DNA from: Leucoraja erinacea
Taxonomy: Eukaryota
Direction of reading: 5' to 3'
NCBI RefSeq assembly: GCF_028641065.1
Contig: NC_073395.1
Coordinates: forward strand, 35,402,001-35,466,000
Length of the DNA stretch: 64,000 bases
Each line of letters begins with the position of its first letter. Position 1 is the stretch's first letter. A program made the translations under genes and the position numbers. Under the pieces are notes generated by a model. The model searched no databases. It was not told where the DNA came from and saw only the letters and a list, made by a program, of their open reading frames with translations. Shown here one piece after another: positions 5,591-57,000 of this stretch.

Positions 5591-7102
5591 CAGTGCATTC
5601 CGAAAGTATTCAGACCTCTTCAATTTTTCCCATTTTGTTACGTTACAGCCTTATTCTAAAATGGATTAAATGTATTTTTTTAATCACCAATCTACACACA
5701 ATAGCCCATAATAAACAAGTGAAAACACGTGTTTAGAAATGTTTGCAAAGAAATAACTGAAATATCACATTTACGTAAGTATCAGACCCTTTGCTCAGTA
5801 CTTTGTGAGGCACCTTTGGCAGTGATTACAGCTTCAAGTCTTCTTGGGTATGACACTACAAGCTTGGCACACCTGTATTTGGATAGTTTCTCCCATTTTT
5901 CTCTGCAGATCCTCTCAAGCTGTCAGGTTGGATGGGGAGTGTTGATGCACAGCTATTTTCAGGTCTCTCCAGAGATGTTCGATCGGGTTCAAGTTTGGGC
6001 TCTGGCTGGGTCACTCAAGTACATTCGGACTTGTCACGAAGCCACTCCTGCGCTGTCTTGGCTGTGTGCTTGGGGTTGTTGTCATGTTGGAAGGTGAACC
6101 TCCGCCCCAGTCTGAGGACTAGAATGTTCTGGAGCAGGTTTTCATCAAGGATCTCTCTGTACTTTGCTCTGTTCATCTTTCCCTTGATCCTGACTAGTCT
6201 CCCAGTTCCTGCCGCTGAAAAACATCCCCATCACCATGCCTCACCGTAGGTCTAGTATTGGCCAGGTGATGAGCGGTGCCTGGTTTCCTCCAGACGTGAC
6301 GCTTGGCATTCAGGCCAAAGAGTTCAATCTTGGTTTCATCAGCCCAGAAAATCGTGTTTCTCATGATCTGAGAGTCCTTTAGGTGTCTTTCTGCAAACTC
6401 CAAGCGGGCTGTCGTGTGCCTTTTACTGAGAAGTGATTTCCGTCTGGCCACTCTACCATAAAGGCCTGCTTGGTGGAATGCTACAGATATAATTGTCCTT
6501 CTGGAAGTTTCTCCCATCTCCACAGAGGAACACTGGAGCTCTGTCAGAGTGACCATCGGGTTCTTGGTCACCTCCCTGACCAAGCCCCTTCTCCCCCAAT
6601 TGCTCAGTTTGGCCGGGCGGCCAGCTCTATGAAGAGTCCTGGTGGTTCCAAAGTTCTTCCATTTAAGAATGACGGAGGCCTGTGTGTTCTTCGGGACCTG
6701 CAATGCTGCAGAAATTTTTTATACCCTTCTCCAGATCTGTGTCTCGACACAATGCTGTCACGGAAGTCTACGGACAATTCCTTTGTCTTCATGGCTTGGT
6801 TTTCGCTTTGACATGCACTATCAACTGTGGGTCCTTATATAGACAGGTGTGTGCCTTTCCAAATCATGTCCAATCAATTTAATTTACCACTGGTGGACTC
6901 CAATCAAGTTGTAGAAACATCTCAAGGATAATCAATGGAAACAGGATGAACCTAAGATTAATTTTGAGTGTTATAGCAAAGGGTCTGAATACTATAAATG
7001 TGATATTTCAGTTATTTCTTTTTAATCAGTTTTAAAACAAGTGTGTAACGTAACAAAATGTAGAAAAAAGTGAGGCGGGCTGAATACTTCCTGAATGCAC
7101 TG
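5591..7102 (-). mobile_element. Tc1/mariner transposon (IR/DR type), defective transposase
   Basis: TA|CAGTGCATTC...GAATGCACTG|TA. Long TIRs with an internal repeat of AGTA(T)TCAGACCC. Frameshifted transposase on - from ATG 6792 (MKTKELSVDFRDSIVSRHRSGEGYKK; GRPAKLS; LYGRVARRKSLLSKRH; FWADETKIELFG). Confidence 0.95.
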
Positions 7103-13787: not shown

Positions 13788-13812
13788 ATGTGTCATCAGA
13801 CCGGCATTCCAG
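13788..13812 (+). CDS. TWF1: Twinfilin-1 coding exon 1
   Basis: gcagtATG (A at -3) TGT CAT CAG ACC GGC ATT CCA G|gtactg = MCHQTGIP, compared with twinfilin MSHQTGI; 25 coding nt. Confidence 0.88.
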
Positions 13813-15448: not shown

Positions 15449-16170
15449 ATGCAGCGAGACCTGGGTGTCATGGTACACCAGTCATTGAAGGTAGGCATGC
15501 AGGTGCAGCAGGCAGTAAAGAAAGCGAATGGTATGTTAGCTTTCATTGCAAAAGGATTTGAGTATAGGAGCAGGGAGGTTCTACTGCAGTTGTACAGGGT
15601 CTTGGTGAGACCACACCTGGAGTATTGCGTACAGTTTTGGTCTCCAAATCTGAGGAAGGACATTATTGCCATAGAGGGAGTGCAGAGAAGGTTCACCAGA
15701 CTGATTCCTGGGATGTCTGGACTGTCTTATGAAGAAAGACTGGATAGACTTGGTTTATACTCTCTAGAATTTAGGAGATTGAGATGGGATCTTATAGAAA
15801 AGTATAACATTCTTAAGGGGCTGGACAGGCTAGATGCAGGAAGATTGTTCCCGATGTTGGGGAAGTCCAGGACAAGGGGTCACAGCTTAAGGATAAGGGG
15901 AAATCCTTTAAAAACCGAGATGAGAAGAACTTTTTTCACACAGAGAGCGGTGAATCTCTGGAACTCTCTGCCACAGAGGGTAGTTGAGGCCAGTTCATTG
16001 GCTATATTTAAGAGGGAGTTAGATGTGGCCCTTGTGGCTAAGGGGATCAGGGGGTATGGAGAGAAGTACGGGATACTGAGTTGGATGATCAGCCATGATC
16101 ATATTGAATGGCGGTGCAGGCTCGAAGAGCCGAATGGCCTACTCCTGCACCTAATTTCTATGTTTCTATG
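15449..16170 (+). mobile_element. CR1 LINE 3' fragment, young (uninterrupted ORF2 C-terminus)
   Basis: RDLGVMV...LVRPHLEYCVQFWSP...LRRLRWDLI...RTRGHSL...FFTQRAVNLWNSLP; tail (TTTCTATG)n. Nearly identical to 29911-30300. Confidence 0.95.
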
Positions 16171-22613: not shown

Positions 22614-24425
22614 TTTTAAAATTTTATTTATTTATTTCTTTATTAGAAGCAAACACATATTATAAAAATGTCATGTATATCAATACTACATTATTAATAT
22701 TATCAATTGTGGGTTGATTCCGCTTCTAGTTATTTTTTAAAGACGAAGTAAGAGAGAAAGAGGGGAAAAAAAACACTAATGTCAAGATAAAAAAAAGAAT
22801 GTAAAGATTTACTAATAATACATCTTTGGAGATAGGTTCGTGGATTATAAAGTATAACTTTTCATCTAATCCTGAGTTCAAGCTTCAGTAAGGTTCCCGT
22901 GCTGCACCAATCTACCCCTTCAAATAGTCAATGAATGGAGATCATATTCTAACAAAAAGTTCTTGTTTGTCCATTAAGACAAATCTGATTCTTTCCAGGT
23001 GTAGGGTCTCCGACATTTCCATGGCTTTTTGTGAGTGTTAGACTTTGTTCTGATATGCCAAGTATTATTAGTTTTGAAACGGGATCTAATTTAGTATTGA
23101 TAACTTCAGAAATTATTCTAAAAATATCAATCCAGAAATTTTTGATTTTTATACAGTTTACAAAAGTATGTGCTAGGTTAGCCTCTAGATGCTGACATTT
23201 ATCACAGATAGGAAAGATATGTGGGAAAATTCTATTTAGTTTTGTTTTAGAGTAATGTAATCTGTGTAATACTTTAAATTGTATTAAAGCATGTCTGGCA
23301 TTTAACGAGCATTGATGTATATATTGTGAACTTTCATCCCAAATATCTTTTGTTATACGTTGGCCTAATTCATTTTCCCATGTGTGTCTATATAATTCCA
23401 TCGATGGAAACTCGGTATCTAAGAGGATGTTATAAATATATGCTATTAATTTTTCTGTATTAGTATGTTTGTTCAAACATTCATCAAGGATTTCTGGTTC
23501 CCTAGTCCTATAATCTTGTGTATTAGATTTAACATGATCTCTAAGTTGTAGATATCTGAAAAAGTTATTTGAATGTAAACAGTAGATCTGTTGTAACTCC
23601 TGAAATGAGAGAAAAGTGCCTTTCCTATAAAGATGTAGCATATTTTTAATTCCACAATTTTTCCATTGTGTAAAACCTTTATCCAATGTGGATGGTTTAA
23701 ATAAAGGATTGTTTACAATGGGGAAACAGAGTGATATATTATTCAATTTTAAAGCCCTTTTTAATTGTTTCCAGATTCATATGCCACTATGTATTATAGG
23801 GTTTTCCCTTTAGGTTTTTTGGTTCTGGTTGCTGATCCATTTCTTCCAGCCAGAAATTCATGTTTTTAATTTGGACTGCCCAAAATATAAACAGAAAATT
23901 TGGTAAGGCTAAACCTCCACTTGTCTTTGATTTACATACATGTTTTTTGCTTATTCTATGATTCTTATTATCCCAGATGAAGCTTGTAACAATAGAATCG
24001 ACCTTGGGAGATATATTGATTGGAATAGGTAAAGTAACTGTGGTAAAAAGATCATTTTTATAGCATTAATTCTACCAAACATTGAAATGGGAAGTGTTTT
24101 CCAATACTGCATATTCTTATGTAGTTTATTCAGTAAAGGTGGAAAGTTAAATTTAAATAAAGAAGTATATGTCTTAGTTACATAAATTCCTAAATATTTA
24201 AATTTTTCCTTCACTATTTTAAAAGGGGATTGTTGTAGTGTGTGTAAATTAAGTTCTGTTATTGGCATGATTTCGCTTTTATTCCAATTAATTCTATATC
24301 CAGAAAATTGACCAAATTGAGTTATTAGATTTAGTAAATTTGGAATGCTAATTTCTGGCTTTGTAATATGTATTAATACATCATCTGCATATAAAGAGAT
24401 TTTATTAATTGTGTCTTTAGTATTT
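22614..24425 (-). mobile_element. L1-clade LINE, 5'-truncated
   Basis: Minus ORFs KFKYLGIYV...GRINAIKMIFLPQLLYLF and QFKVLHRLHY...CDKCQHLEANLAHTFVNC (L1 ORF2 C-terminus, CCHC). A-rich tail. TSD ACTGCTGACT at 22604-22613 and 24426-24435. Confidence 0.9.
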
Positions 24426-24504
24426 ACTGCTGACTCTTTTTAACTTGGCGCAGAGTGCAATGGTTATCTGTTTTCTATTGCACAAATGCATGAGTGAAGA
24501 ATCG

Positions 24505-25332
24505 AGTCGATTGGCCTCATCAGCAACAACGATGAGTTGGCCTACAGGGAGGAGGTCCAGCACTTAGCAGCATGGTGCGCTGACAACAACCTGGCCCTTA
24601 ACTCCAAGAAGGCCAAGGAGCTCATTGTAGACTTCAGGAAGTCCAGAGGCGGCATGCACACCCCCATCCACATTAACGGGACGGAGGTGGAACGTGTTTC
24701 TAGCTTCAGGTTCCTGAGAGTCAACATCTCCGATGACCTCTCTTGGACCCACAATACCTCTACTCTGATCAAGAAGGCTCATCAGCGTCTCTTCTTCCTG
24801 AGGAGACTGAAGAAGGTCCATCTGTCTCCTCAGATCCTGGTGAACTTCTACCGCTGCACCATCGAGAGCATCCTTACCAACTGCATCACAGTATGGTATG
24901 GCAACTGCTCTGTCTCCGACCGGAAGGCATTGCAGAGGGTGGTGAAAATTGCCCAACGCATCACCGGTTCCTCGCTCCCCTCCATTGAGTCTGTCCAAAG
25001 CAAGCGCTGTCTGCGGAGGGCGCTCAGCATCGCCAAGGACTGCTCTCACCCCAACCATGGACTGTTTACCCTCCTACCATCCGGGAGGCGCTAAAGGTCT
25101 CTCCGTTGCCGAACCAGCAGGTCGAGGAACAGCTTCTTCCCGGCGGCTGTCACTCTACTCAACAACGTACCTCGGTGACTGCCAATCACCACCCCCCCCC
25201 CAGACACATTATTATTTATTCAAATCATGTGCTATGTCGCTCTTCCAGGGAGATGCTAAATGCATTTCGTTGTCTCTGTACTGTACACTGACAATGACAA
25301 TTAAAATTGAATCTGAATCTGAATCTGAATCT
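24505..25332 (+). mobile_element. Rex1/Babar-type LINE 3' fragment
   Basis: WCADNNLALNSKKAKELIVDFRK...KKAHQRLFFLRRLKK...FYRCTIESILT...LFTLLPSGRR; (GAATCT)n tail at about 25309-25332. Confidence 0.9.
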
Positions 25333-29910: not shown

Positions 29911-30300
29911 TTAGAAACTTACAAAATTCTTATGGGGTTGGACAGGCTAGATGCAGGAAGATTGCTCCCGATGTTGGGGAAGTCCAGGACAAGGGGTCAC
30001 AACTTAAGGATAAGGGGGAAATCCTTTAAAACCGAGATGAGAAGAACTTTTTTCACACAGAGAGTGGTGAATCCCTGGAACTCTCTGCCACAGAGGGTAG
30101 TCGAGGCCAGTTCATTGGCTATATTTAAGAGGGAGTTAGATGTGGCCCTTGTGGCTAAGGGGATCAGAGGGTATGGAGAGAAGGCAGGTACGGGATACTG
30201 AGTTGGATGATCAGCCATGATCATATTGAATGGCGGTGCAGGCTCGAAGGGCCGAATGGCCTACTCCTGCACCTAATTTCTATGTTTCTATGTTTCTATG
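29911..30300 (+). mobile_element. CR1 LINE 3' fragment, young, abutting the previous copy
   Basis: ETYKILMGLDRLDAGRL...RTRGHNL; ends in (TTTCTATG)3. Nearly identical to 15790-16170. Confidence 0.92.
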
Positions 30301-34974: not shown

Positions 34975-37730
34975 AGGCAAAATATTCAAAACTAACAAAA
35001 ATTTCAGTGTGGTGGTGAAAAGACTTACAAAGTATCTGAAACAAAACCATTTCATTGATAAGTCAATCCAAAAGGCTGGCATAGCAGGCTTCTCGGGATG
35101 CCTTGAACATACCAGCATTATATGGCATTAAATCCAGACTGCTAAGAAAGAACGAAATAATCTGCATGTCTTGTTCCTCGATCTGGCCAACGCCTATGGA
35201 TCAGTTCCTCATTCGCTACTGTGGATTGCTTTTGAATTCTTTCAGTTGCCTGCAATAATAACAAATCTAGTAAAAAACTACTTCCAGGATCTGCAATTTT
35301 GTCTCACAACATCGGACTTTACCACAGCGTGGCAACCACTGGAAGTAAGCATCATGGCGGGGTGCACCATCTTCCCATTGACCTTCACTGTGGCAATGGA
35401 GCTCATTATCAGGGCATCAAAATGGGTTGTGGGAGGAAAATGGCTTCAGTGTGGTCAGCGATTGCCACCGATAAGAGCCAATATGGACAATATAACAACA
35501 CTAACAACAACTATCCCCTGCACCAAGAGACTTCTGGAAAAACTTCATCAAAACATCACATGGGCAAGGATGAAGATTAAACCCAGCAAGTGCAGAAGCA
35601 TCTCCATTGTCAAAGGTCAAGTCAAGGATCACAGATTTCATATTGACGGAATACCTGTTCCAACTGTTTCAGAAAGGCCAGTGAAGAGTTTGTGTCGATG
35701 ACATGATGCAAAGCTCACGGAAGGATCTCGGCTAAGTTTTGTCATCAGAGCCACTTATGTTGTTCTACCATCACACCAGAACCTGAAGCAGTGGTTTGGA
35801 GAAGACCCCGTTTGCTCCCTTTGCCAAGCACCTGCATCACTAAGGCACATTTTAACAGGATGCACTATGAGCCTCGACCAAGGGGGTTACACTTGGCGGC
35901 ATAACCAAGTTCTCAGACAGCTGGCATCAGTCCTTGAACAGAGACGAACGACCACAAATGCTTCCCCACCAACATTGTCCACTTCACAACATTTGTACCA
36001 GCAGGCCAACCTCCAGAGCTCCAGATAACATCAATGGATGCAAGCATTCTGCAGCCTGCTCGGGATTGGAAAATGGAAGTGGACTTAGAAAAAAGGCTTG
36101 TGTTTTCCCGACATTGTGTAGCAATGTTACAAAATTTTGAGATAAAAAAAATCAAGTCTGCAATTTATCCCATCAGATAAAGCATAAAGATAAGTTTAAT
36201 TTGACACCTAATTCACTTTCATATCTCAAGTAATAAAAAGGTTATGGCCATTTTCATACTCGGAAATTAGCATCTTGTTCCCTATTGATTTTCTATGGAC
36301 ATAACAAAAAAGCTGTGATCATGGACAGTCAAAAGCCCATAACCTTCTTAAAAATTAAGAGAACTGAATGAAATTTTCAGTTATCATAGATTGAACCATT
36401 CTGAAACAAATATAAAATAATCTTACTTGGGTGACCTGAAATTAAAGCATATAATTAGTTAGTTACCCAATTGTAGCTAATTTCAAACTTCAATTACTAG
36501 ATCTAAACATCTATCCATTTCTTAATAAATGATTAACATTTTTAAATAGCCTAAGTGTCCAAATAATATTCACAAATAATTCACAATAAAACATGATTTT
36601 TAAATCTCATTTACATCAATTTATAGGCCAAATGGAAGGAATTTAGTGTTCAATTGCTGTAAATTAAAGTCAATTTAAATCGGCTTTCTAGTGGGTTCCT
36701 GTGAATGCGCTGGTTTAGAACGTTCACATTGCGTTGGATTTGTGCCCTCAAATGCCCAGAAAAATACTGCGGGATATAAAGAGCCCAAAATGAGCTACTC
36801 GCTATAGAAAACTTTATATACAGGGTTCTTAAGAAGCCCCTTTTAATGTAAAAATAAGGTACATACCTTTAATTGTTTGCTTTATAAAACCCTGGGGCTG
36901 CGAGAGGTCGCTGGTTTAGAGAGTGATTTTTAAACTACTATAACTATTATACAAGGCCATAAAAACTAATAATATCTTTTGCGACAGGGTCTTTCAGCGA
37001 TTTTCCGTTAATGATTTACTAAGCTGAACATTTTCGATTGCAACAGCCTAGTAAAAATCGTGTTTTAAACCCGCCCCCTCTAAACAGCGCCAAAATCGCG
37101 CACACGGGGTGGGGCAGATTCTCAGCCACGATTCAGGTAGGTTTTGTAACATACCTACATTGTGGCTACAACACTCCGGCCAGACATGGTCCTGTGGTCT
37201 ACAACAGCCACGTTGGCATACGTTGTGGAACTGACAGTTCCATGGGAAGATGGTGTTAAAGCTTATGAGAGGAAAAAGACCAAATACTCTGAACTGGCAA
37301 CTGAAGCTTCCCAGAATGGCTAGAAGATCAAGATTTTCCCTGTCGAATTGGGATGCAGGGGATTTGTTGATACACCTATGACCAGGCTATTAAAGAAAAT
37401 GGGGGTGAGGGGTCGCTCCCTCCAACAAGCAATCAAGTCATTATCAAATTCTGCAGAAAAAAGCAGCAATTGGATTTGGATCTAAAGGAGAGACAACAAT
37501 TGGGCTGCAAGATGAAGACAGGAGGGTATGGAACTGAGGGGGGTGCAACTGGGACGCCAGGTATCACCGTTGAGCCCTCTGGAAATGTTGTAGGCTTATC
37601 AATGAAATGTCAAAGAAGGAGGGTGCCCACCTGATGAACCCGATGACGTACCTACCCTACCTTCCACCACTCCAATCCCACTGCAAATAGCAAGAGTGCT
37701 GACTTATTACAGGGCTTGAAAAATCAAGTC
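34975..37730 (+). mobile_element. HERO/R2-group non-LTR retrotransposon (RT + zinc knuckle + restriction-like endonuclease), 5'-truncated, interrupted
   Basis: QKAGIAGFSGCLEH; FLDLANAYGSVPH; IMAGCTIFP; PIRANMDN (degenerate YMDD); CSLC..HILTGC; YTWRHNQVL; LRPDMVLWS...VELTVPWED...YERKKTKY. Stops and frameshifts present; ends approximate. Confidence 0.85.
36119..37157. mobile_element. Non-autonomous DNA transposon with TAG...CTA termini and 7-bp TSD (copy 2), nested in the HERO element
   Basis: Same termini as 3696-4735. TSD CATTGTG at 36112-36118 and 37158-37164. Removing it restores FPDIVATTLRPD. Confidence 0.88.
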
Positions 37731-39267: not shown

Positions 39268-39363
39268 GAGGATGTTTCCTTCAGTGGTTACACAAAGCAT
39301 CTTGTTTTGCAAAAGGGTCCCGTCCCACTGACAGCAGCAGAAGAAGAGCTACAGAAGATTAAG
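39268..39363 (+). CDS. TWF1: Twinfilin-1 exon 5 (apparently shortened by 9 nt)
   Basis: ttgtag|GAG; EDVSFSGYTKHLVLQKGPVPLTAAEEELQKIK. The only usable in-phase donor is AAG|gtaaat; the position 9 nt downstream reads GAG|ctaaat. Confidence 0.85.
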
Positions 39364-39399: not shown

Positions 39400-39900
39400 T
39401 GCTGGTTGATGCTAAAGATAGGCATAAACTGCTGGAGAAGCTCAGCGGGTCGGGCAGCATCTCTGGAGAAAATGGATAGGGGAAGTGTCGGGTCAAGCGC
39501 TTCTTCAAGCTGATTGAGTGGGGGAGAGAAACTGGACGCAAGAAAAAAAAAAAAACAGGACAAATCGGGGTCGGCAACAGATGACTGCGGGCAAGGAGGT
39601 TCCCTGATAGTCCAATTGTTGGCTAGAGACTGTGAGCGTAAGAGGGATACCTTGTTGCAAATTCAGCGACCGTTTGGCTGAACACTCGCGCTTGGTGTGC
39701 CAAGGGCTACTGCATCTCCTGGGTGCCAAGCACTTTAACTCCTCCAACCAATCCAATACTCAGCTTTTTGTGCTGAGCCTCCTCCATTGCTGGAGTGAGG
39801 CCACTCGAATATTGGAGGTAAAGCATCTCATATTTGGCCGGGGTGGTTTACAGCGCAGTGGTATGAACGTTGAATTTTTCAATTTTGGGTAAGTTCTCCA
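39400..39900. mobile_element. Penelope-like fragments (pLTR plus GIY-YIG C-terminal part)
   Basis: DRLAEHSRLVC...KHFNSSNQS...LEVKHLIF...GMNVEF on +, adjoining an inverted pLTR-like repeat. Confidence 0.7.
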
Positions 39901-40454
39901 AACATCTTCCTCCCCAACCCTCCCTCTTACCCCCCCCCCCCCCCCCATCCCTTTCCTCCACTAAATGTCTGTTAACCCATTCCATGGTTCACAACAAAAT
40001 ATCCTTCTTGGTCCCACACTGTCTCTAACCTGTTAACCTGTCAGCCTATCAGGGAATCTCATTGCCTGAGGTCATTTGTTGTCGGCCTCGGCTTGTCCTG
40101 TTTTTTTTTATCTCACTTTTTGCTAGGGTAGAGATGTCAAATACTAAAGGGTATAGCTTTAAGGTGAGAGGGGGAATATTCAAAGATGTGGGGCAAGGGG
40201 TGCCTGAATTGTGCTGCCTGGGGCAGTGGTGGAAGCAGACCTGATAGTAACATTTAACAAACATTTAGACAAGCATGAAAACAAGCAAAGAATGGAGGGT
40301 CATGGATCATAAGCAGGCAGATATGGTTAGTTTAATTTGGCATCATGTACGGCACAGACATTGTGGGGCCAAAGGGCCTAGTTCGTAATAGTTTGCATGC
40401 GTGTCATTCTTCAAAGCAGCGGTGTGAGGTCACAGAAACCTATAATGACCTAAC

Positions 40455-43400
40455 ATAGTAAGATTATCAAAGAGATACCAGTTTTTGATATGATCATAAG
40501 AGGGTGGGAGCGGAGGGCACGTATTCCCTCAACGTTCCTCCTCATAAAATACAGATCAAACTTCAAACTGGTAAGTTCTCGTTTAATCTTACTATTTTAC
40601 TTCGGAGTCACGTGAGTGACTACGTGAAGATTTCAAAGCTCTGTGACCTCATGCCGTGGAACGAGTCCATGCTTCACAACTGCCTTGGGTATTGGGAGAG
40701 AGCATCATTAGTTATTTTAAAACACACTTATACAAAGAGTTGTGTGGTATAACGAAAAAATATATAAATTCGGGCAAATTATATTGTTGAACGTAAAATG
40801 GTTTCCGAACACGATGATGGCTCCAAAAAAACTGGTTTATTATAAAACCTTTGGAAAATCCTTTCGGATGACCATCCTGCCATTCTGAGGATTTGGTCTG
40901 TGGGTACCTCTAGAATTTTTGCTGCGGATGTTGCTGCAGCCCTGGTGGAATGAGAGTTAAAAAACATTAGTGTCTATTCCTGCCATCTTTAGGACATATT
41001 TGAGCCACCTTGATATAGTTTGGGTCGTGACCCTTTTGTGCGGTTTCTTGTAAGAGATTAACAACGCCATTCTCTGACCTCGAATGCTCTTAGTATATTC
41101 TATGTATAGTTGGATGTGTCTTGCTATACACAGTCGTTCGTCATATGGGTATACCATAAATTCAAACACTTGACCCGATGAACCTGGTCTGTTTTCTTTT
41201 ATTAAATCCTGTATGACAAACACCAGTTTCTCGGGTGAGATGATCAGGGAGTCCAGGCTCAGTTTGCTTAATGGCTGGACTCGTTGTGCGGTAACTAACG
41301 CCATGAGCATAACCATCTTCATGGTCCGTTACTGAAGTGACAATGCTGTTATGGGCGACCAGCTCCTCAGCATGTTTAGAACGACACCCACCTCCCAGAT
41401 TTTGGAGTACCTGGTTTTAGGGGGATTACCATTGAATATGCCCCTCATGAGTTTTGTTACCAGGGGGTGTGTTCCCACCGTGTGCCGCTCCGTTCCTTGT
41501 GATAGGTAATTGGAGAGTGCACTTCTGGCACTATTGATGGCACTGTAGCTCCATCGATTATCATAATGGAGGCTTGTTAAAATTCCAATACGGCCAGAAT
41601 GTTCTTGGCCTTTTGGTCGAGGTTGTTGTCCAAGCAGTATATGCCCCATTTCGTGATGTGTCCAAGGTACTGCTTCCGTGTTGACAGTCTTTGTGCAGAT
41701 GAGATGAGATTCATCGTCCTGTCTGACAGCCCCATGCCGTGTAGTGGGTCTTTCAGACTCTACAAATCAACAAATCCATAGTCTTATAGCATGGATGACT
41801 GCCCCCAGTCACTGGATGAATTAATAAATTTGGCTATGTTCATGAGGGAACATGGTTCTAACACCATCCCCTGTATGACCGAATACCATGATTGAGTAGG
41901 CCAGTCGGGTACTATGAGAATCCCAGATGCCGAGTCTTGTTGAATTTTTTCCCTAGTACCCCATTGATGGGGCAGAACGGGGGAAATACATCACCCTATG
42001 GCTTTGTTTACGTAACAATGCCAAGCTGGTTTTAGAATTTTAGTAAATAATATTGGGGCTGATGTTTGCCCCTTTGGTAAGCTCTATATTGCCAAAGTTC
42101 CCCCCCCCCATCCAGTTAAATTGCAAACACCGTCTGTGATCCCCTCTGATGGGTACTGTATAGTATGTATCTTTTGAGTCAATGCCTGCCATATAGAAAA
42201 CCCAGCTGACACCAATTCTTTATCAGTAATAAGAGTATCCATCTTAAAATGAACATATTGAACGAATGTGTTTAGGGTTGAAAGGTCAATGATAATCCTG
42301 CAACCCCCATCTATTTGATTTTTAATAATATGTTTGCCAAAATTCTAATTTTCCATGAAAAGTATGCTCAATCACACAGGTGGCTTGTGTGTACAAAATT
42401 TGTAGCACCATGTGGGTTTAGATTGTTTGGTTTATAGTTAATAAAATGCCATTCTGGATCCATGTTGTACCCCTGTTTTGGGATGGTTAAATTAATCAGA
42501 TAACCCTGCAGAGTCCCTGCTGAGATTATATGATCATGGGAGTGATTTTACACCATACATAACTGTAGTGTTGCAAATTCCCCTCCCCCACCGTCGTGGG
42601 TCCCTTTTTTACAGAAGAACCACACCCACCTACCTCCATGGTTACCGGTGGTTGTGTTATTTCCTTGGTTTTTTGAAAAGGGGGTTCTGGTTTGATATCT
42701 CTTGTTCGGGGTTGTGTGGGAGGTTGAGGCTTCCGCATCTTCCAGGGTGGCCGTCCCTGGCCATACCCTAAAAAGGCTGCTGCGGGTTATATTGATTTCT
42801 GGCACTGCCACTGGTATGAGCCACATTTTTATGGCCTTGCATGTGGCTGGTATCGTGCTCCAAAATAGGCCCTTGCGCTGGCCTTGATGAGCCCCAGTGT
42901 CTTGGCTTCGTCCACACACGGTTCTTTGTTTGCAAATGGTAGCATTTTAGGGGTCCAGTGCTGGCTGAATGGCAGCCTTCCACATGTAGTTCAGCTCATA
43001 TTGCATATTACTAAAACAGAGCTAGTGCGTCTTGATGGTCTTTGGTTACCTCTGTTTAGTCCAGGGTGCGGGTGTATGCTGTGATCCCTTCCGTCAATCC
43101 CTTTAAGGTTTTCTGGATCTTGAGGTCCTGGTTCCTGATGTTCCTCCCCATATGCTGCCAAATGCATTGGTTTACACTGGGCACCTGTAATGCCTCACCG
43201 TTGCCAGGTGGCAGATGTCTGGCCAGTCTCTGTAAATATTTCTTGTTGGAGTTTGTGGCCAGACATATAGTTAATACTATTGCCATCCTGGATCCAAGTC
43301 TACCCCTGTTTGACTTGGTTTAAAGTAATCAGCCACCATGTCCAGCAGAGTCCCTGCTGTGTTAGGATCATGGGACGCTGTATTACCAGGCTCTGGCCCA

Positions 43401-45327
43401 TCAGGGTCCTGCCTACTCTTTTTTATAGAGTTAGAGATCTCTAGGGGTCCCGCACGGGGTACCCATGTGGGGCTTACCTCCTGCCCACTGTGGCTAGTCT
43501 CCACATCCATGTGACTGCTACTGTGAAGGAGCTCCTTTTTTCCCCCCGCTGTTTCCGTCCCCCGTACACACGGGCACTGGTTTGCGGGTTTTCCTCGCCC
43601 TACCGCTGACCGCACCGGTCTTGTATGTAGGTCCACCTCTCCACACGGTCCCGGTACTCACAGGCACCTGTGCTGGCTGCTGTCATGCTGCAGCCACTCG
43701 TACCGGCTTCCTCCAGCGGGGGCTAGCGGGTCCACGCCGTCTCCGTACTTCCAGCGCCATGGACCCATCTAATACTTTAACCAAAGGATTAATAAACAGA
43801 TTTTTATGAAAAAACATAGAAATTAGGTGCAGGAGCAGGCCATTCAGCCCCTCGAGCCTGCACCGCCACTCAATTCAATGGGGTCCGTGGGGTTGTACCC
43901 GATACGTCTGGATTTTGCTGTGTAGGCGGTCAAAACCCGGCTCCAACGCTCTCAGCGCTCCTGGCTGCTCGTTTATCTCAGACCGCTGGGACCGACCCCG
44001 GTACTCACGGTACTGGTCCCTCGCGGTCGTTGCAGCCGGTCAACCCCACTCCAATGCCCTCAGTTCTGGGCACTCCTGCTTATATGGTCCTTAGATAAGG
44101 GACGTATCAGATATTAAAACTGATAATAAACAGATACTATACTTGATCTTAGCCAAAAGGCCAAGAAGCGATCTCTGTAACTAAAAAACCCGCTGGGACC
44201 GACCCCGGTACTCACGGTACTGGTCCCTCGCGGTCGATTGCAGCCAGTCAACTCCACTGCAATGTCCTTAGTTTGTGAGCCTCGGCGCTGGCCGGTAGCG
44301 CTGCTTCAAGCCAGACTCGCTTCCAAAGCGAGACTGGCATACTGGCCGAGAAATGAATTTTCCCCTGGTGCGGGAGCGAAGTCGGGCACAGGTGTTTTCC
44401 CTCTCCGGGAATCGATGTGCCGTTGCTGCTCCTGCCGCTGCCGGCCGCCGTGCCGTTGCTGCTCCTGCCGGCTGCCGTTGCTGCTCCTGCCGGCTGCCTG
44501 CACTCCGCGGTTCTCCCGCCAGCTTTCTGCAGCTTACATGGACCCGGTCCATGTCTGCACCTAAAGGGTAAGTGGAAGGAACGCAGAGTCTCTTACCTGC
44601 TGTTCCCGACTTTCAATTCTCCCGCTGGTGAACGTCGTTCCCTGCGTGTCGGGTTCGAGCCGCTCGGACCGACCCCGGTGTTCACGGGACTGGTCCCTCG
44701 CGGCAGTTCCGCAGTCGGTAAAACCCGGCTGTTCGTAGGGACCCCTTGGACCAACCCCGGTGCTTACCGTTTGAAGAAGGTTTTCGGCCCGAACGTCCCC
44801 AGTTCCTTTGCTCCATTAGTGCCGCTGCACTCGCTGAGCTTTTCCAGCCCTCCTGTGTACCCCCGGTACTTACAGCACTGGTCCCTGCTCTCTGTCCTGC
44901 AGCCTCGGCGCTGGCCGCTAGCGACTGCTCCAAGCCAGTCTCGCTTGAGACTGGCATACGGGACGTCTTTGCTTTGCTTCCCGCCCGGCCGAGAAGTGAA
45001 TTTTGCCGGTGCGGGAGCGAAGTCGGGCACAGGTTTTTCCCCTCCAGGAAACTGGTGCCGTTGCTGCTCCTGCCGGCTGCTCGCACTCCGCGGGTCTCCC
45101 CGCCAGCTTTCCGCAGCCTTCATGGATCAGGTCCATGTCTCCACCTAAAAGGTAAGTAGAAAAAAGGAACGCAGAGTCTCTTACCTGCTGTTCCCGACTT
45201 TCAAATTCTCCCGCTTGGGGAACGTCGTTCCCCCTGTGTGACTTGTTGCAATGCGTGTAGCGATATGACATGCATGCGTTGGAAGCGGGTTCTTCACGTA
45301 GTCACTCACGTGACTCCGAAGTAAAAT
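40455..45327 (-). mobile_element. DIRS-type tyrosine-recombinase retrotransposon, internally deleted and rearranged, in TWF1 intron 5
   Basis: On -: gag-like (VPSVNQCIW..RNQDLKIQK); RT remnant DGGCRIIIDLSTLNTFVQYVHFKMDTL (about 42235-42312); methyltransferase-like GILIVPDWPTQSWY (about 41885-41927); YR (SAINSARSALS; LMALVTAQRVQ; TISRWLK; HSTRAAATS..AGWSS..FQRFY). Perfect 37-bp inverted match 40594-40630 / 45291-45327, plus an adjacent imperfect match to the other end (about 40455-40495): an internal complementary region. Confidence 0.9.
44081..44172 (-). pseudogene. U2 snRNA 5' fragment (about nt 1-90)
   Basis: Minus strand ATCGCTTCTTGGCCTTTTGGCTAAGATCAAGTATAGTATCTGTTTATTATCAGTTTTAATATCTGATACGTCCCTTATCTAAGGACCATATA matches the U2 5' domain. 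It stops before the Sm site and has a substitution in the GTAGTA branch-recognition sequence. Confidence 0.92.
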
Positions 45328-45509
45328 CCTAATTTTCCTTGTAGTACTTCATTTTGTTTAGTTAAATCTGTTTCCCTATTATTGATCTACCTGCCAAGCA
45401 AAATGGGTGTATTTTGTTTAATTTGTGTAGGTCTCTCATAATTTACATAACATGATTAAAAACTCTATGTCCGTTATTTAAAAAAAAACTAATCTATCAC
45501 AGCTAGAAT

Positions 45510-46260
45510 ACATAAGGTCATAAGTGATTACAGCAGAATTAGGCCATTCAGCCCATCAAGTCTACGCCATCATTCAACCATGGCTGATCTATGTCTCCCT
45601 CCAAACCACATTCTCCTGCCTTCTTCCCCTATCCCGACATCTGTACTAATCAAGAATCTATATATCTCTGCCATAAAAATATCCATTGACTTGGGCCTCC
45701 ACAGCCTTCTGTGGCAAAGAATTCCACAGATTCATCACCCTCTGACTAAAGAAATTCCACCTCATCTCCACCATAAAGGAACGTCCTTTATTTCTGAGGC
45801 TATGACCTCTGATCCTAGACTCTTCCACTAGTGGAAACATCCTCTCCACATGCACTCTACCCAACAATTTCGCTATTCGGTAAGTTTCAATGAGGTCCCC
45901 TCATCCTTCTAAACTTCAGTGAGTAGAGGCCCAGTGCCAAGCCTGACAACAGTTAGACTTTCTGGAGCCCTTGAGGTATCCAGTCTTTCTCCAGTGAGGT
46001 GACTAGAACTGAATGCAGTCCATCGGTTGTAGCATATTTCAGTAGTTCTTGCATGATCACACTGCTCTTGCAGTTCATGGCTTGGCCAACAAAGGCAACA
46101 ATCCCTTGTGTCCTTTTAACTGAAGAGCAGTGAACGTTCCTTCCAAAATACCTGTTATTCAAAACCATACTCTTGTTCTTTGGTGTGACCTGCCTTTATT
46201 TGTTTCCTTTCCCAAGTGTATTACTTTGAACTTCTCTGGATTGAATTGCATTTGTTACGT
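45510..46260 (-). mobile_element. CR1 LINE fragments
   Basis: RMFPLVEESRIRGHSL...FFSQRVMNLWNSLP on -; degraded further right. Confidence 0.8.
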
Positions 46261-46484
46261 AGACTCCTCATAACTCCATTGATGGGAACGCAATTATGTG
46301 CAAGTTTCCCTCCCAGTTGCATGTCATCTTGACTTGGAAATATAAACCTGTTCCTTAGACTTAACAATGCCTTGGCTATCAGGATGTGCAAAAAATACGA
46401 TGTTTGGCAGCAAAATCCACACCTCATGAATGGCTGTCGGAAAATAAAAATACATTGGTAAACCACTTGTTATATTTTTGGCAG

Positions 46485-46610
46485 GAGGACACTGAAATCT
46501 TTGTAGAAACTAAACGACCAACATTGCAAGGAGTAGCCTTTCCTTTGCAGGAAAATGCTGTACAGGCCCTGGAAAAACTCCAACACAAAGAGCTGAGCTA
46601 CGTCCAACTT
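46485..46610 (+). CDS. TWF1: Twinfilin-1 exon 6
   Basis: ttggcag|GAG ... CTT|gtaagt; [42 protein letters not shown]; 126 nt. Confidence 0.93.
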
Positions 46611-46734
46611 GTAAGTATTTGTGTGAATGGACTGCTTAATTTTTTTAAATCTACATGTTGTTCTCTATGGAAATGATAATGAAGAAATGATAATGTTTTG
46701 TAGTACTGCTGATACAGCAAAATAACATTAGCAG

Positions 46735-47250
46735 TCACAGCCATTGCCTGGTCCACTAGAGGTACTGACCTCCCCACCATCAAAAGGTTCTGTACGAGGC
46801 ATTGCCTCGAAAAAATGCAGCCAATATCGTCAAAGACCCACATCACTTTGCACATGCTCTCATTTCATTCCTACCACCAGGAGGAAGGCGTACATAATCA
46901 ACGACTCGTCCCACCCCCGTCATTCCTCCTCCTTCCCACTTCCATCGGAAAAAAGGTGAAGAAGCTTGAAAAGGTGCACCACCAGACCTGGGAACAGCTT
47001 CTTGCCCCCTGTGATCAGGCTTTTGCTCAGTCCTTCCATATGCTACTGTCCAATTTACCTCTTCCTATTGCGGACATTGGACTTTGTCCATGGGACTTGT
47101 GCGCTACAATGCTGAGAACTATGTTCTACACTTTATCTTTCATTTGCTCTACCTATTGTATATGAGTTGACGATTGTATTTGTGTTTAGTATTATCTGGT
47201 CTGAATGGGTATCATAACGTTTTTCACTGTACCATGGTACACATGTACAC
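46735..47250 (+). mobile_element. Rex1-type LINE 3' fragments
   Basis: Remnants of DLPTI..CLEK.ANIVKDP and DSSHPRHSSSFPLPS, like 32079-32405. Confidence 0.65.
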
Positions 47251-48039
47251 TTAACAAGAATAAACCCATATCCAAAGTATGATAAGAACCCAGGCCTTTT
47301 TACAATTTGTGGATATCTTAATTCATTGATCATTTTACTTCCCATTTTCTGCACGGCCTCAAGGCTGCCTGTCCTTGCCGTATTCCAAGAATCCTGGTGG
47401 TTTGTACAGAAACGTTTGTATTATCTCTCCTGTGGTTACACATTGTAAAAACATGGTTGGTTTTCTTTACTTTTGTTTTCACAATCAGTTGACCGTTAGT
47501 ATCCAATAAAATCTTCAGTTTTTTTCTAAAGCATGGAGAGTTTGTTTGTTTGTTCTTTTCTTCCTTCTATTTTCATCATGATTTTGGCTGTGTTTAAGTA
47601 TCTGATTTCATTTTGCTATACTTCAGCTTCCCTTTCCATCTTCCAAATCTCTTAAAACTTTGCTTGCTTTCATTGTCAGAAAGTTTGATTTTGTTTTTCT
47701 CCAGGTACAAATTATTGCCACATATTGAGCTTGTGTTGATGTGACCACACGTGCTGTCGCCCTAGACATAGGAATTGGTTAAACTGTGGATGAAGGGCTT
47801 CCCTTAAATTGCTTTCAACTTTGTAATGCTTGTGTCATTTGAAAATAAAAGCTTTAAAAGTACAACATGCAATTAAAATATATATCACATTTGCGGAATT
47901 TATACTGTCAGCAGTATCTACCATTTCCTTTAAATTCAATAAATTAGTTATGCAAGGTCATCTGCTCTCACCAGAATGTGTTTCCTACTCATTGTTGTTA
48001 TAATTGATTAATCAATGCACCACCTCTTTTTGTTGGCAG

Positions 48040-48190
48040 GAAATAGACTTCAATCATGAAAGTATAGTGTTGGCTGATGCATCCCATACGGAGATAGTGG
48101 ATTTACCAATGCGTGTACCAAAGGATTCTGCACGATATCATTTCTTCCTCTATAAGCACTCGTACGAAGGAGACTACAGGGAGTCTATAG
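48040..48190 (+). CDS. TWF1: Twinfilin-1 exon 7
   Basis: ttggcag|GAA ... ATA G|gtacaa; [50 protein letters not shown]; 151 nt. Confidence 0.95.
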
Positions 48191-48706
48191 GTACAATGTC
48201 TTCGCTAGTGTTGATTTCATTGTAAACTTGGAAACTCATCTTGCAGTTATTTGTTGGACCTTGAAATGCCTATTGTTGAATCCACAAAATAATAAAATCT
48301 CCTACACAAAAAACGCTTCCAAGGGGGACTTGATTTTATTGTAAATGCTCTTTCTCTCCTGCTGTTGCCTTTCTTAATATTTTTACTGGAACGTCTTTTA
48401 TCAAAGTTGGTTCAATATAGGTCGATCTCGAGTTCCTGTCATTGTTACTGCATCATGAGTTCACAGGAAGTGCATGTTTTGAAGTCGGATTTGATTCTAT
48501 CATGTTTCTTTCATGGCAGCAACCAAGTACAAATATTCAACGACCAAATGACAGATCTTTATTAATAACGGAAATAATCGTACGAGGAAGCATTCTCTGA
48601 ACTGGCTGACATCATTAATCCCTCACACTAATTGTTCTCATTATTGAATACATTATAATTAAGTTGTAAATTGTTTCTTTAAACATAAATATTTTTTGTT
48701 TTCCAG

Positions 48707-48828
48707 TGTTTATATATTCTATGCCTGGCTATACCTGTAGCATTCGAGAACGAATGTTATATTCCAGTTGTAAGAATTCCCTTATTGATATGGTGGAAAA
48801 ACAGCTTTCACTGGAAATAACTAAAAAG
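48707..48828 (+). CDS. TWF1: Twinfilin-1 exon 8
   Basis: ttccag|TG ... AAG|gtaaaa; (V)[48 protein letters not shown] is TWF1-type (TWF2 has GYKCSIKE). Confidence 0.95.
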
Positions 48829-49221
48829 GTAAAAACAAATGAAGTGTTTCAGCTCATTTGTAGCAGTTTGCAATTACCATCTCTACAATTCTTTAGCAAC
48901 CAAGAAAGTGCCAACAATCTCCCAATCCTTCCTCCATCAAAAACATGTGGGAATAGCTCGCATGGTCCTTGAGTTCTCTCTGGCATTTAATTAGTTATTA
49001 ACTGAATCTGTATCTATGTCTTGATTTAAATCTAAATAACTTATAACCTGCTATCATGTATATCTCTCCCTTCAATGATATATTTAGTCCGATCATGTGG
49101 TCTTGAAATAATTTATTTGTTAAAAATGTCCTTCTTATCCTCAAATCTGCTTGAATGTATCATATTTTTCCATTTGTAAAATTAAATGGTGTAACCGAGT
49201 GGTTCACCTCTGTGCTTTCAG

Positions 49222-49389
49222 ATTGAAATCGGCGACGGCAATGAGTTAACCCCTGACTTCTTATATGAGGAAGTACATCCAAAGCAGCTCGCACACAGAC
49301 AAATATTTGCAAAACCAAAGGGCCCTGCAGGCAAGAGGGGAATAAGGCGATTAATACGAGGGCCAGCAGAACCTGACAAAACTGATTAA
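49222..49389 (+). CDS. TWF1: Twinfilin-1 exon 9 (last; capping-protein-binding tail)
   Basis: tttcag|ATT; [55 protein letters not shown], stop TAA at 49387-49389. Confidence 0.96.
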
Positions 49390-50327
49390 AAATAGTATAT
49401 CTTCGAAGATCTTGCTTTTTTAAGGCTTAATAGGTAATACTTTTGTATACTGTGGCCATTCTATATCATTTTACATCCAATCTATTCTATTTTGTTATAT
49501 TTTGCTTATCTTGTTCATCATGTCTGGAGTATTGAATTAATTTCTGTAATTACGCTTTTTCGTTTGGGTGTTGGTCAGATGTTTGGCATCCCTAGTTTTT
49601 CTCACTAGCTCGGTTCCTGAAGATGCTATTGCTCTTACTGTGGTAAAAGATCAAAGTTGCAAGTTTGAATGCAAACTACAGCTGAGATATAGTTTGCCAC
49701 ACTGATGTTTTTATCAAACTTATAGTGAAAACTTAATATGCTCAGTGCAAGCTACCAAACTGGACTTTAATTTGACCATAATGCCAAGTTTCTCTCTTTT
49801 TCTCATCATTAATGCTGTCAAGTTGGATGAAACTAAATAGGACCCAAAATAATTCTTAAATATGCTATATTGAATTCAACCAAGCAGTACACATTGTTCA
49901 GTTGTGCATTTCATATACATTTGCATGCTGGTGATAATTCAATTTGTTTTTTTGCTCCAATTGGATGCTGAAGCCTTGGATAAAGTGAATGCTAATAATT
50001 TCAAACCATATGTCTCTAGTCACCTTTGTAATTACAACAGAAGGAAATCAATTGCCCAAAATTACATTTGTTAAGTGACATCACCAGCATGTCTTATCTA
50101 AACCCTTTATCCATTTACCAGATCGATGATCATTATTATTCTGATCGTTGATCAGTCGGGTCAATCCCAGCAAACTCAAATGAAACGGGATTGAGTTGAT
50201 CTCTAGAATTGCTAAAACCCTCCAAGCTTCCTTTCAATCACAACAGAGATCTGGGTCACGAATTTTGGGATACCTAGATTCCCAACATATACCATCATTA
50301 ATAATGAGGATGAATGTAAAATGTTTT

Positions 50328-54000: not shown

Positions 54001-57000
54001 TTTAGCGAGACAGGCAGGTTGTTAAATAATTTTATTTGGCAAACAAAATGATAATAAAACTCAATACACGCGTGCCTGGTCAGCTAACACTAGAATAGCG
54101 CCTGCTGCTGGGAGGAGCGCTGACAATCGACTAGAAAGTCTGCAAACGAACCCCCGTGGTCACGTGATCGGGCCAACCAATGACGAGGGTTTGAACTTCC
54201 CCAAACCACCACTAGGTGCCGCTACAGGACCCCCCCCAGAACCGGAGGAAAGGAACCAAGCGGGAGGCCGAATGAGGCGACCAATCCGAGTGGAGACACG
54301 AGGTACAGGATGAACTGGCGGAACAGAGCCAGCAGGCGGCAAAGTAACAGGAGAAACAGGCACAACATGTACGGCCAGCGGACGAACTCTACGTCAGGGT
54401 TGAGCCACCACCACCGGGCTATCGACAACCAGGTGGGCGGGCTTGAGGCGAGCCACTGAAACGATCTCCTCCCGACCCCCGACATCCAACAGAAAAGTTG
54501 TGATGCCGGGCCACAACACCCGGAAATTACCCTCATAGGTCCGCTGCAGCAGAGTCCAGTGCGAGTCCCTGCGGATAAAAACAAACAGGCAGTCCTTAAG
54601 CTCTGGCGGAACATAGACAAGAGCAATCCCATGTGGAGAGGTCGGGATAGGAGCCAGGCCGCCCACTTTCTCCTGTAGGTTCGCCAAAACAGACGAAGTG
54701 CGCTCTTGCAGCCCCCGACCTGCAGGAAGGAAATCCCCAGGCACCCGCAGCGGGGAGCCGTACACGAGCTCGGCAGATGACGTGTCCAAATCCGCCTTTG
54801 GGGCCGTGCGGACCCCCAGCAACACCCAAGGCAACTGGTCCACCCAGTCCAGGCCCGTAAATCGTGCCTTCAGCGCTGACTTCAAATGCTGATGGAAACG
54901 CTCCACCAAACCGTTGGCCTGAGGGTGATAGGCGGTGGTGTGATGCAGCTGCGACCCATACAGCTGTGCCAGAGCTGACCACAAGGCAGAAGTAAACTAG
55001 GCACCACGGTCGGTGAGGATGTCCACAGGTACAGCAAAACGAGCCACCCAGTGGGCCACGAGGGCACGAGCATAAGGCGCGGCGGAGGTGTCCGTGTTGA
55101 ACGGCCTCTGGCCACCTCGTGAAGCGATCCATGATGGTAAGCAGGTGCGTAGCACTGCAAGACGTCGGTAGCGGACCCACCAAATCAACATGGTTGTGCT
55201 CGAACCAATGAGGGGGAACCACAAAATCCTGAAGCGGCGCTCGCACATGTCGCTGGACCTTTGACGTCTGGCAGGGAATGCAGGCCCTAGTCCAGGCCAC
55301 AACCTGTTTATGAAGCCCCTGCCAGACAAACCTGTCCGTCACCAATGCAGAAGTCGCCCGGATGGAAGGGTGGGCCAGACCGTGGACAACGTCGAACACA
55401 CACCGCCGCTAACCCACAGGGACGATGGGGCGTGGCCTCCCGCAGAGAACCGTCACACCTGCAGGACCGAACATCGGCCTATACCAATCCAGACGCTGCT
55501 GTCCAATAGGCGTCCAACTCACCGCCCTCGCATTGTGCAGCACCGAGCCCAGAATAATCCATGCCCGGGTCCACGGACAACATGGCCGGGACTGCAGGGC
55601 GAGACAAAGCGTCCACGACCAGGTTCAGCTTGCCTGCCACGTGCTAGACATCGGTGGTGTACTCTGACACAAACGCCAGGTGCTGCTGTTGCCGAGATGA
55701 CCAGTGGTCAGACACCTTTGTAAACGCAAACGTGAGGGGCTTGTGGCCTGTGAACGGCGTGAAGGGTCTGCACTCGCGGAAATGACAGATCGCCAAATAA
55801 AGGGCCAGGAGCTCTTGATCAAACACGTGTAGCTCCGCTCCGGAGGATGTAGGTGCCGGCTGAAAAAGGCAAGCGGTTGCCAGCATTCTGTCAATAAATT
55901 GCTCCAGGACCCCTCCGTCAGCAGTATACGAGGCGTCCACGGTGAGGGCGGTCGGAGCAGCAGCCCGTGGGTGCACCAGCATGGTGACCTTGGCTAGCGC
56001 CTCCTTAGCACCGTCGAAGGCAGCCGCGGTCTCGGCGTCCCACACTAGGTCCCGCGGCTTTCCGACCAAGCACTGGAACAAGGGCTGCATGATCCGGGCC
56101 GCCGACGGCACAAAACTATGATAGAAATTCACCATGCCGACGAACTCCTGTAGCCCCTTGATGGTGAGTGGCCGGAGAAACTGCCGAATAGCCTCCACCT
56201 TAGCAGGAAAAGGTGCAGCACCCTGTGAGGTGACATGGTGTCCCAGGAAGGAAATAGAGCAGAGCACAAACTGATATTTGTCGGGGTTGATCACCAGCTC
56301 GTATCCTGAAGCCACTGGAACAGTACCGGGAGGTGCGCGCAGTGTTCCTGGTGGGGGCAGTTAGAGACCAGAATGTCATCCAGGTACACAAACACGAATT
56401 CCAACCCCCGACCCACCATATTGATCAACCGCTGGAAAGCCTGGGCGGCGTTCTTCAACCCGATCAGCATCTGCAGCCATTCAAATAGGCAATACGGGGT
56501 GATGATGGCGGTCTTCGGCACATCATCGGGGTTGACGGGAATCTGGTGGTAGCCGCGCACCAGATCCACCTTGGAAAAGATGGTAGTACCGTCCAAGTGC
56601 GTTGTGAAGTCTTGAATGTGCGGGACTGGGTAGTGATCAGCGGTCGTGACCACGTTCAGGCGGCGGTAATCCCCACATTGTCTCCACCCCCCAGATGTAA
56701 TGGGGAAGTCCACATGCTGTTGGAGCGCTGCACAATCCCCATGTCCTCCCTTTGCCGGAACTCTTCCTTGGTGAGATGCAACTTGTCGGGCAGGAGCCTG
56801 CGCGCCCTTGCATGCAGTGGAGGGCCGGCAGTAAGAATATGATGGACCACCCCATACTTAGGGGCAGCTGCGTGAAAGCGTGGGGTCAGATGCTCCGGGA
56901 ATTCAGCCGGTGTGGGAACATATGCCCCACCCACATCCATCACAGATCCGAGGTGCGGGTCGGAGTGAACTGCGGGCCGCGAAGGCGTGGCCCCGGAGTA

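Follow-up and report, generated by a model that had tools for sequence, protein, structure and literature searches.

The window analysed here is a 64,000-nucleotide (64-kb) stretch of the genome of the little skate, Leucoraja erinacea. Its plus strand carries nine coding exon matches of a twinfilin-1-like gene, between positions 13788 and 49386, in which all 313 compared residues are identical to the little skate protein XP_055506806.1, with 8 differences from the Amblyraja sequence and 18 from that of Rhinoraja. A decayed DIRS1-like element of approximately 4.9 kb is inserted antisense in an intron of this gene, between the exons at 39268-39363 and 46482-46610, and extends, on the minus strand, from its left end at 45327 to a presumed right end at about 40387. 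Within the 5' region of this element lies a truncated copy of the U2 snRNA (Table 1).

Table 1. Coordinates of the host exons, the parts of the DIRS1-like element and the sequences around the U2 fragment
Feature	Position	Strand	Remarks
Twinfilin-1-like exon, upstream of host intron	39268..39363	+	
Right terminal region of DIRS element	40387..40539	-	apparently damaged; end position presumed
Internal complementary region (ICR)	40540..40630	-	left part 40594-40630; right part presumed
Tyrosine recombinase gene	40791..41735	-	disrupted by frameshifts and a stop; 96% identity with XP_055510073.1
Reverse transcriptase fragment	41973..42329	-	broken; E 1e-6 to RT-recombinase proteins
Gag-like core	43110..43301	-	weakly similar to DIRS-type proteins of mussel, E 2e-4 to 7e-4
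AT-rich stretch, 45 nt	43767..43811	-	GC 0.20 in GC-rich surroundings; adjoins LINE-type tail
LINE-type 3' end, 63 nt	43812..43874	-	same sense as U2; 206 nt downstream of U2
Repeat B	43983..44065	-	downstream copy; lead homologous to next module, 43955-43921
Extra bases 3' of U2, 15-16 nt	44066..44081	-	likeness to DIRS module lead-in not significant
U2 snRNA nt 1-89 (perhaps 90)	44082..44172	-	3'-truncated before Sm site; Rfam
Extra bases 5' of U2, 17 nt, AT-rich	44173..44189	-	begins with 7-mer, G plus six T, at 44189-44183
Repeat A	44190..44273	-	upstream copy on element's strand; 47-nt core as in B, 37-nt lead with 5 substitutions
Second copy of DIRS 5' unit	44278..44649	-	head to tail with first
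First copy of DIRS 5' unit	44901..45240	-	89% to second over 177 nt
Left terminus of DIRS element	45291..45327	-	37/37 complementary to ICR
Twinfilin-1-like exon, downstream of host intron	46482..46610	+	

An ICR complementary to the left terminus is a defining feature of DIRS1-like elements (PMC3266345). At the other end, the left terminus is matched at just 12/13 bases and the ICR with gaps, most of the expected pairing sequence is missing, and from these remnants the right terminus looks deleted or damaged. The coding sequences are similarly decayed. The gag-like core has no Pfam match, and none of 34 candidates proved to be a longer homologue; the gag sequence is duplicated internally at 76% identity (42433-42541 and 43266-43375), just before the reverse transcriptase (RT) fragment. 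No RNase H or methyltransferase was detected between that fragment and 41951 among 160 proteins compared, and both domains have probably been lost from this copy. A relative 96% identical to the broken recombinase (41735-40791) matches PF00589 above the cut-off. The segment 43880-45327 is rich in CpG, with an observed to expected ratio of about 0.9 in the measured segments against 0.4-0.5 elsewhere.

U2 is the sole Rfam family to reach the gathering score in the 64-kb window (44172 to 44068 on the minus strand, 77.7 bits, E 1.4e-13). In the Rfam alignment, model positions 1-89 correspond to 44172-44082 on the minus strand, possibly with one base more, and positions 90-185, within which the Sm site presumably falls, are skipped. 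The first-pass annotation had described a fragment that begins exactly at the U2 5' end, extends to about nucleotide 90, stops before the Sm site and is oriented as the DIRS reading frames are, and the alignment bears this out, the shared strand (minus) being that of the recombinase, RT and gag-like fragments. The fragment lies approximately 1.15 kb inward from the left terminus. No further piece of U2 was found in the window at the gathering score, nor, at E<=1, beside the fragment (40300-44060 and 44200-45400), where the relaxed search returned just a bacterial motif below threshold and a match to an lncRNA, both taken as chance. Over nucleotides 1-67 the copy has three substitutions and two one-base insertions relative to the Rfam consensus, and a change at nucleotide 33 falls inside the branch-point pairing sequence. 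Because of the 3' truncation and these changes it is not a working snRNA: the full length, Sm site and intact branch-point pairing of a functional U2 gene are all lacking. The fragment is a dead, non-functional copy, and most likely a passenger without function.

It had also been proposed that U2 is bracketed by two copies of a DIRS-internal repeat of roughly 70 bp. The flanking copies are real, although they are longer than was proposed: 43983-44065 (B) and 44190-44273 (A) align at 92.9% identity over 84 columns (E 6e-29), with their starts 207 nt apart. Their placement around U2 also stands, but not as a direct bracket. One side has 17 unassigned bases (44173-44189) between U2 and the repeat and the other 15-16 (44066-44080/81), and the repeats belong to a series. 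Related modules are present at 44861-44886, 44742-44770, 44660-44703, 43921-43955, 43650-43667 and 43546-43587, across the 5' region and gag. Five of them have matches that none of 1000-2000 shuffles equalled, and the match of 43650-43667 was equalled in 8/1000. Counting A and B, the 5' region of the element holds about eight such modules. Since related modules recur six more times, A and B are not a unique duplication; they are native modules.

The differences between A and B are unevenly distributed. The first 47 columns, which include seven CpG, are identical, and all six differences lie in the remaining 37 (clustering P=0.006). Taking 43957-43915 as an outgroup, all five A/B substitutions are assigned to A, at 44237-44273; three of the five are G to A on the element's strand. 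Six differences in 84 columns would be unusual for a target duplication with a pairwise distance of 2% (P=0.008), and less so at 4% (P=0.12). Even decay of a target duplication therefore fits A and B poorly, and a join of two DIRS templates fits them better, as the perfect 47-nt core beside the divergent lead of A suggests two templates; the identical core could also be the product of gene conversion. Splice-donor-like words are present in the 5' units and module cores (minus strand: 45184, 44596, 44873, 44215, 44008 and 43661), with others on the plus strand at 45152 and 44568, facing the twinfilin transcript. The DIRS 5' region may be intronic in DIRS RNA.

At the ends of the U2 fragment, the longest word common to both junctions is 5 nt, such that there is no short target-site duplication, and no duplication of 8-35 nt is found at the U2 ends, the only repeat present being that of 47-84 nt. 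Poly(A) is likewise absent from the U2 ends. Microhomology is not significant at either junction, the score of the left flank being reached by 613/5000 shuffles and that of the right by 1138/5000. Neither flank has an exact match longer than 10 nt elsewhere within the 64-kb window, and their likeness to the two halves of one native spacer is not significant. An extension of the repeat up to the 3' end of U2 was considered and rejected, because the anchored extension was matched by 3337/5000 shuffles, as was the idea that the 207-nt spacing preserves a reading frame, since every one of the three frames is interrupted by stops within the insert.

A short target-site duplication or LINE-type signature belonging to U2 itself had been named beforehand as the sign of an ordinary retropseudogene. 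The former is absent; of the latter there is a LINE-type tail 206 nt away, together with a 7-nt bracketing repeat. The tail, which we take to be CR1-like, has two further copies in the window (16103-16165 and 30225-30287). Against the nearest of these it has four differences, three of them A to G changes in the sense orientation, which may reflect RNA editing or subfamily variation. The adjoining AT-rich stretch may be the native end of an intron, or foreign. The bracketing repeat is the 7-mer of G and six T, which is found at the end of repeat A (44189-44183) and again at the end of the LINE tail (43815-43809).

The reading tentatively favoured here, though short of probable, is that U2 was captured when the DIRS RT switched from DIRS RNA to U2 and back to DIRS RNA. 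Starting at the 3' end of a DIRS RNA, the enzyme would have copied through module B and then transferred to U2 at the single-stranded linker around nucleotide 90. After running off the U2 5' end it would have continued on another DIRS RNA, at a position downstream of the one it had left; the chimera would then likely have been integrated by proteins supplied in trans. Such a re-entry would account for both the repetition of the module and the divergent lead of A. The DIRS sequence on both sides, the shared strand and the lack of poly(A) or of any shared word longer than 5 nt fit a template switch, which is also supported by the mosaic of divergent DIRS pieces, namely the two 5' units that are 89% alike and the pattern of A and B. 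Moreover, with the recombinase paralogue at a DNA distance of about 1.6%, six differences in 84 columns are more than a duplication of 2% age would give. Capture of host RNA by a double switch is known from LTR elements, and what they produce in this way can transpose again (PMC5131818). Among the vertebrates screened in a survey of tailless U2 retrocopies, these were found only in mammals and the anole, and the parts of that survey consulted name no cartilaginous fish (PMC5322556); this restriction is counted in favour of the DIRS switch.

Several observations argue against it. Microhomology at both junctions is insignificant, and in LTR capture in Drosophila, microsimilarity was reported at 25/29 junctions and element sequence was replaced in all cases (PMC5131818), as opposed to the repeat and extra bases present at both ends of U2 here. 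Retroviruses switch templates between non-homologous sequences at least 1000-fold less often than between homologous ones (PMC3187697). Furthermore, a LINE route is suggested by the LINE-type tail together with the bracketing 7-mer. The template switching onto U2 that had been envisaged in the first-pass annotation is partly supported. A DIRS host, an origin from RNA and U2 ends that lack poly(A) and a short duplication all fit it, but microhomology is not significant, the repeats are native modules, and the LINE-type tail 206 nt away with its bracketing repeat leaves room for a LINE route.

The alternative that a LINE RT acted in genomic DIRS DNA is possible but doubtful, and the same grade covers both of its versions jointly. 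The first is a tailless U2 retrocopy whose target duplication, at 47-84 nt, would be unusually long. The second is a three-part chimera, spanning 44182-43816, in which a U2 head is followed by 206 nt of DIRS RNA and a LINE tail; its insertion at a T-run would have duplicated 7 nt. The order of U2, DIRS and LINE tail on one strand matches that of known snRNA/LINE chimeras (PMC11838501, PMC2104539 and PMC4494074), and the chance of two independent inserts being so positioned is about 0.015. Copies of U2 truncated at the 3' end are common by-products of LINE activity, primed at A-rich sites (PMC5322556). The recurrence of the 7-mer could represent the duplication made by a single U2-DIRS-LINE chimera, being present in just 0.6% (window) to 1.4% (element) of 23-nt windows; but it is a low-complexity word, spotted post hoc, which occurs four times in the element and of which four letters are part of the LINE tail. 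It could equally be the mark of a jump onto a shorter DIRS variant, or chance. Both versions also have to contend with the U2 ends, which lack a duplication of 8-35 nt, and with the clustering of the differences between A and B, which are not uniform (P=0.006). The chimeric version further requires that the DIRS-derived middle came down next to a module homologous to itself, a placement very unlikely to arise by random insertion.

It is considered rather unlikely that a broken DIRS copy was repaired with U2 cDNA, or with part of an older U2 pseudogene together with 15-17 of its flanking bases, and that the neighbouring module was duplicated in the process. Templated insertions at repaired DNA breaks are known, and the extra bases at both junctions, in the absence of a tail and of a short duplication, are as such a repair would leave them. 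An already decayed source would also suit the five changes in 67 nt of U2, compared with none in the 47 nt of the adjoining cores, which include seven CpG. However, a DNA source gives no reason why U2 should start near nucleotide 1 or lie in the sense of the element, and the flanks have no exact match above 10 nt elsewhere in the window. That a U2 pseudogene was joined to DIRS repeats by misassembly is highly improbable, despite the repeat-rich region with its 47-nt perfect repeat and tandem 5' units, given that A and B differ at six places and the 5' units by about 10%, and so are not one sequence written twice, that the host exons agree with the named skate protein at 313/313 residues, and that five runs from two studies each contain at least half of the sampled words of 39500-49400, although the latter is not specific to the junctions; among the runs listed for this segment none was of RNA.

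If the DIRS switch did occur, it may have done so in this copy or in an ancestor that spread it. The best match to the recombinase is the little skate protein XP_055510073.1, with 11/301 aligned residues different and a DNA distance of about 1.6%. It is not this same locus, a possibility rejected because it is on a 35.58-Mb contig and twinfilin on one of 41.58 Mb. XP_055510073.1 shares the frame break near 41585, which an intact relative does not have; the shared frameshift falls within a T-run, and two independent origins or a mistake in the assembly are conceivable. The 96% identity of the recombinase at a second locus, along with the shared frameshift, implies that the subfamily is young, multi-copy and probably moved in trans. 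This suggests a defective lineage copied in trans, and as the RT of DIRS-1 acts in trans (PMC7192593), a defective DIRS subfamily that propagates is plausible.

Whether such a subfamily carries U2 is more questionable. A U2-carrying DIRS subfamily in the skate appears possible rather than probable, and the fuller scenario, in which a master of the young, defective, trans-moved subfamily took up the U2 5' domain, and with it perhaps the LINE tail, by template switching and was then dispersed, would be similarly doubtful. It is favoured by internal divergences that exceed the distance between the recombinases and by the young defective paralogue. The five changes in U2 exceed those expected at an age of 1-2%, with P=0.002-0.15 depending on the changes and rate counted. 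A dating of the capture before this insertion from these five changes was not relied on, as the 47/47 core argues against it. A perfect core beside a changed U2 suggests instead that the changes came with the source, which counts against a family. Direct repeats are deleted by retroviral RT at 41% per cycle for 110 bp, and about four-fold less at 90% identity (PMC3187697); a U2 cassette between such repeats would hence be unstable, a further point against a family. No sister 5' region was found in the viral contigs, metagenome contigs and protein collections searched. The DIRS terminal motif had no hit in the viral contigs and the repeat-core motif none in the metagenome contigs, where 0/52 pattern matches to the recombinase were confirmed; exact look-up of the element's open reading frames returned 0/9.

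Among known systems, the skate U2-DIRS junction would seem by analogy to work most like a captured retrocopy of the LTR type (Tan et al. 2016, PMC5131818). A piece of host RNA flanked by the element, without poly(A) and without a short duplication, is present in both; the LTR-mediated retrocopies are likewise partial, in sense orientation and possibly capable of re-transposition. They differ in involving LTR elements and mRNAs, the word 'DIRS' being absent from that text, and in that most of their junctions show microsimilarity and element sequence is replaced; the skate locus instead has a repeat, with 15-17 additional bases on each side of U2. Tailless U2 retropseudogenes (Noll et al. 2015, PMC5322556) are also 5'-complete, 3'-truncated, without a tail and end near an A/U-rich stretch, but as described there have target duplications of 8-35 nt, depend on L1 activity and occur in therians and the anole; the skate fragment has no such duplication.

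Other associations of small RNAs with retroelements are less similar. In SINEU and the snRNA-LINE chimeras (Kojima 2015, PMC4494074; PMC11838501; PMC2104539) a U2 5' part is placed 5' of a retro-sequence by template switch. The skate fragment similarly has a LINE-type tail downstream in the same sense, but with 206 nt of DIRS sequence between the snRNA head and the LINE 3' end. SINEU units, as characterised in PMC4494074, are free, multi-copy crocodilian units with poly(A), unlike a U2 internal to a DIRS element. Cassandra, Helenus and Ajax (TRIMp3, PMC10886601) are non-autonomous retroelements with a small-RNA-derived piece, but theirs are 5S or tRNA promoters in LTRs, whereas the skate U2 is internal and damaged, and U2 is reported to have no internal promoter (PMC4494074). 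Utopia and Keno (PMC4640811) also place U2 sequence beside a retrotransposon; they insert into U2 genes, mostly followed by the 3' part of U2, whereas here U2 is the insert, has no 3' half and adjoins no non-LTR coding region. The skate fragment is thus not Utopia or Keno, not SINEU as defined, and not TRIMp3. Literature searches at the level of abstracts and listings found no DIRS-snRNA chimera, although one may be recorded in Repbase, in supplements or in subscription journals.

The junction is real and unusual, the element around it is dead, and the mechanisms considered for it are of known kinds. The primer of DIRS element replication is described as unknown (PMC7192593). Priming and RNA copying in this group are still largely open, and a captured host RNA is a fossil of the encounters and jumps of the enzyme. 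Should several copies share the junctions, host-RNA capture, so far known for LTR elements and LINEs, would be extended to the DIRS order, and U2 pseudogenes of cartilaginous fish would have a newly recognised source. A true U2 subfamily would make this the first tyrosine-recombinase retroelement to carry an snRNA, and would show directly that spliceosomal RNA is packaged and copied in DIRS particles. Junctions unique to this locus would make the fragment an ordinary dead U2 retrocopy in an equally dead transposon. In neither case is there an indication of function.

The window contains further repeat-derived sequence. A broken Gypsy-type element at 54397-56857 on the minus strand retains matches to RT, RNase H and an integrase zinc finger, and there are fragments of a Tc1-type transposase (6197-6718) and of RT (23954-24439 and 24498-25091). 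A Pfam match to ALKBH8_N at 35132-35698 is probably repeat-derived as well. In the intron flanking the DIRS element, 39542-39610 and 40046-40114 form a 69-nt inverted repeat at 81% identity, and 39431-39508 has a weak inverted likeness (72%, E 0.002) to 44771-44848 in the DIRS 5' region.
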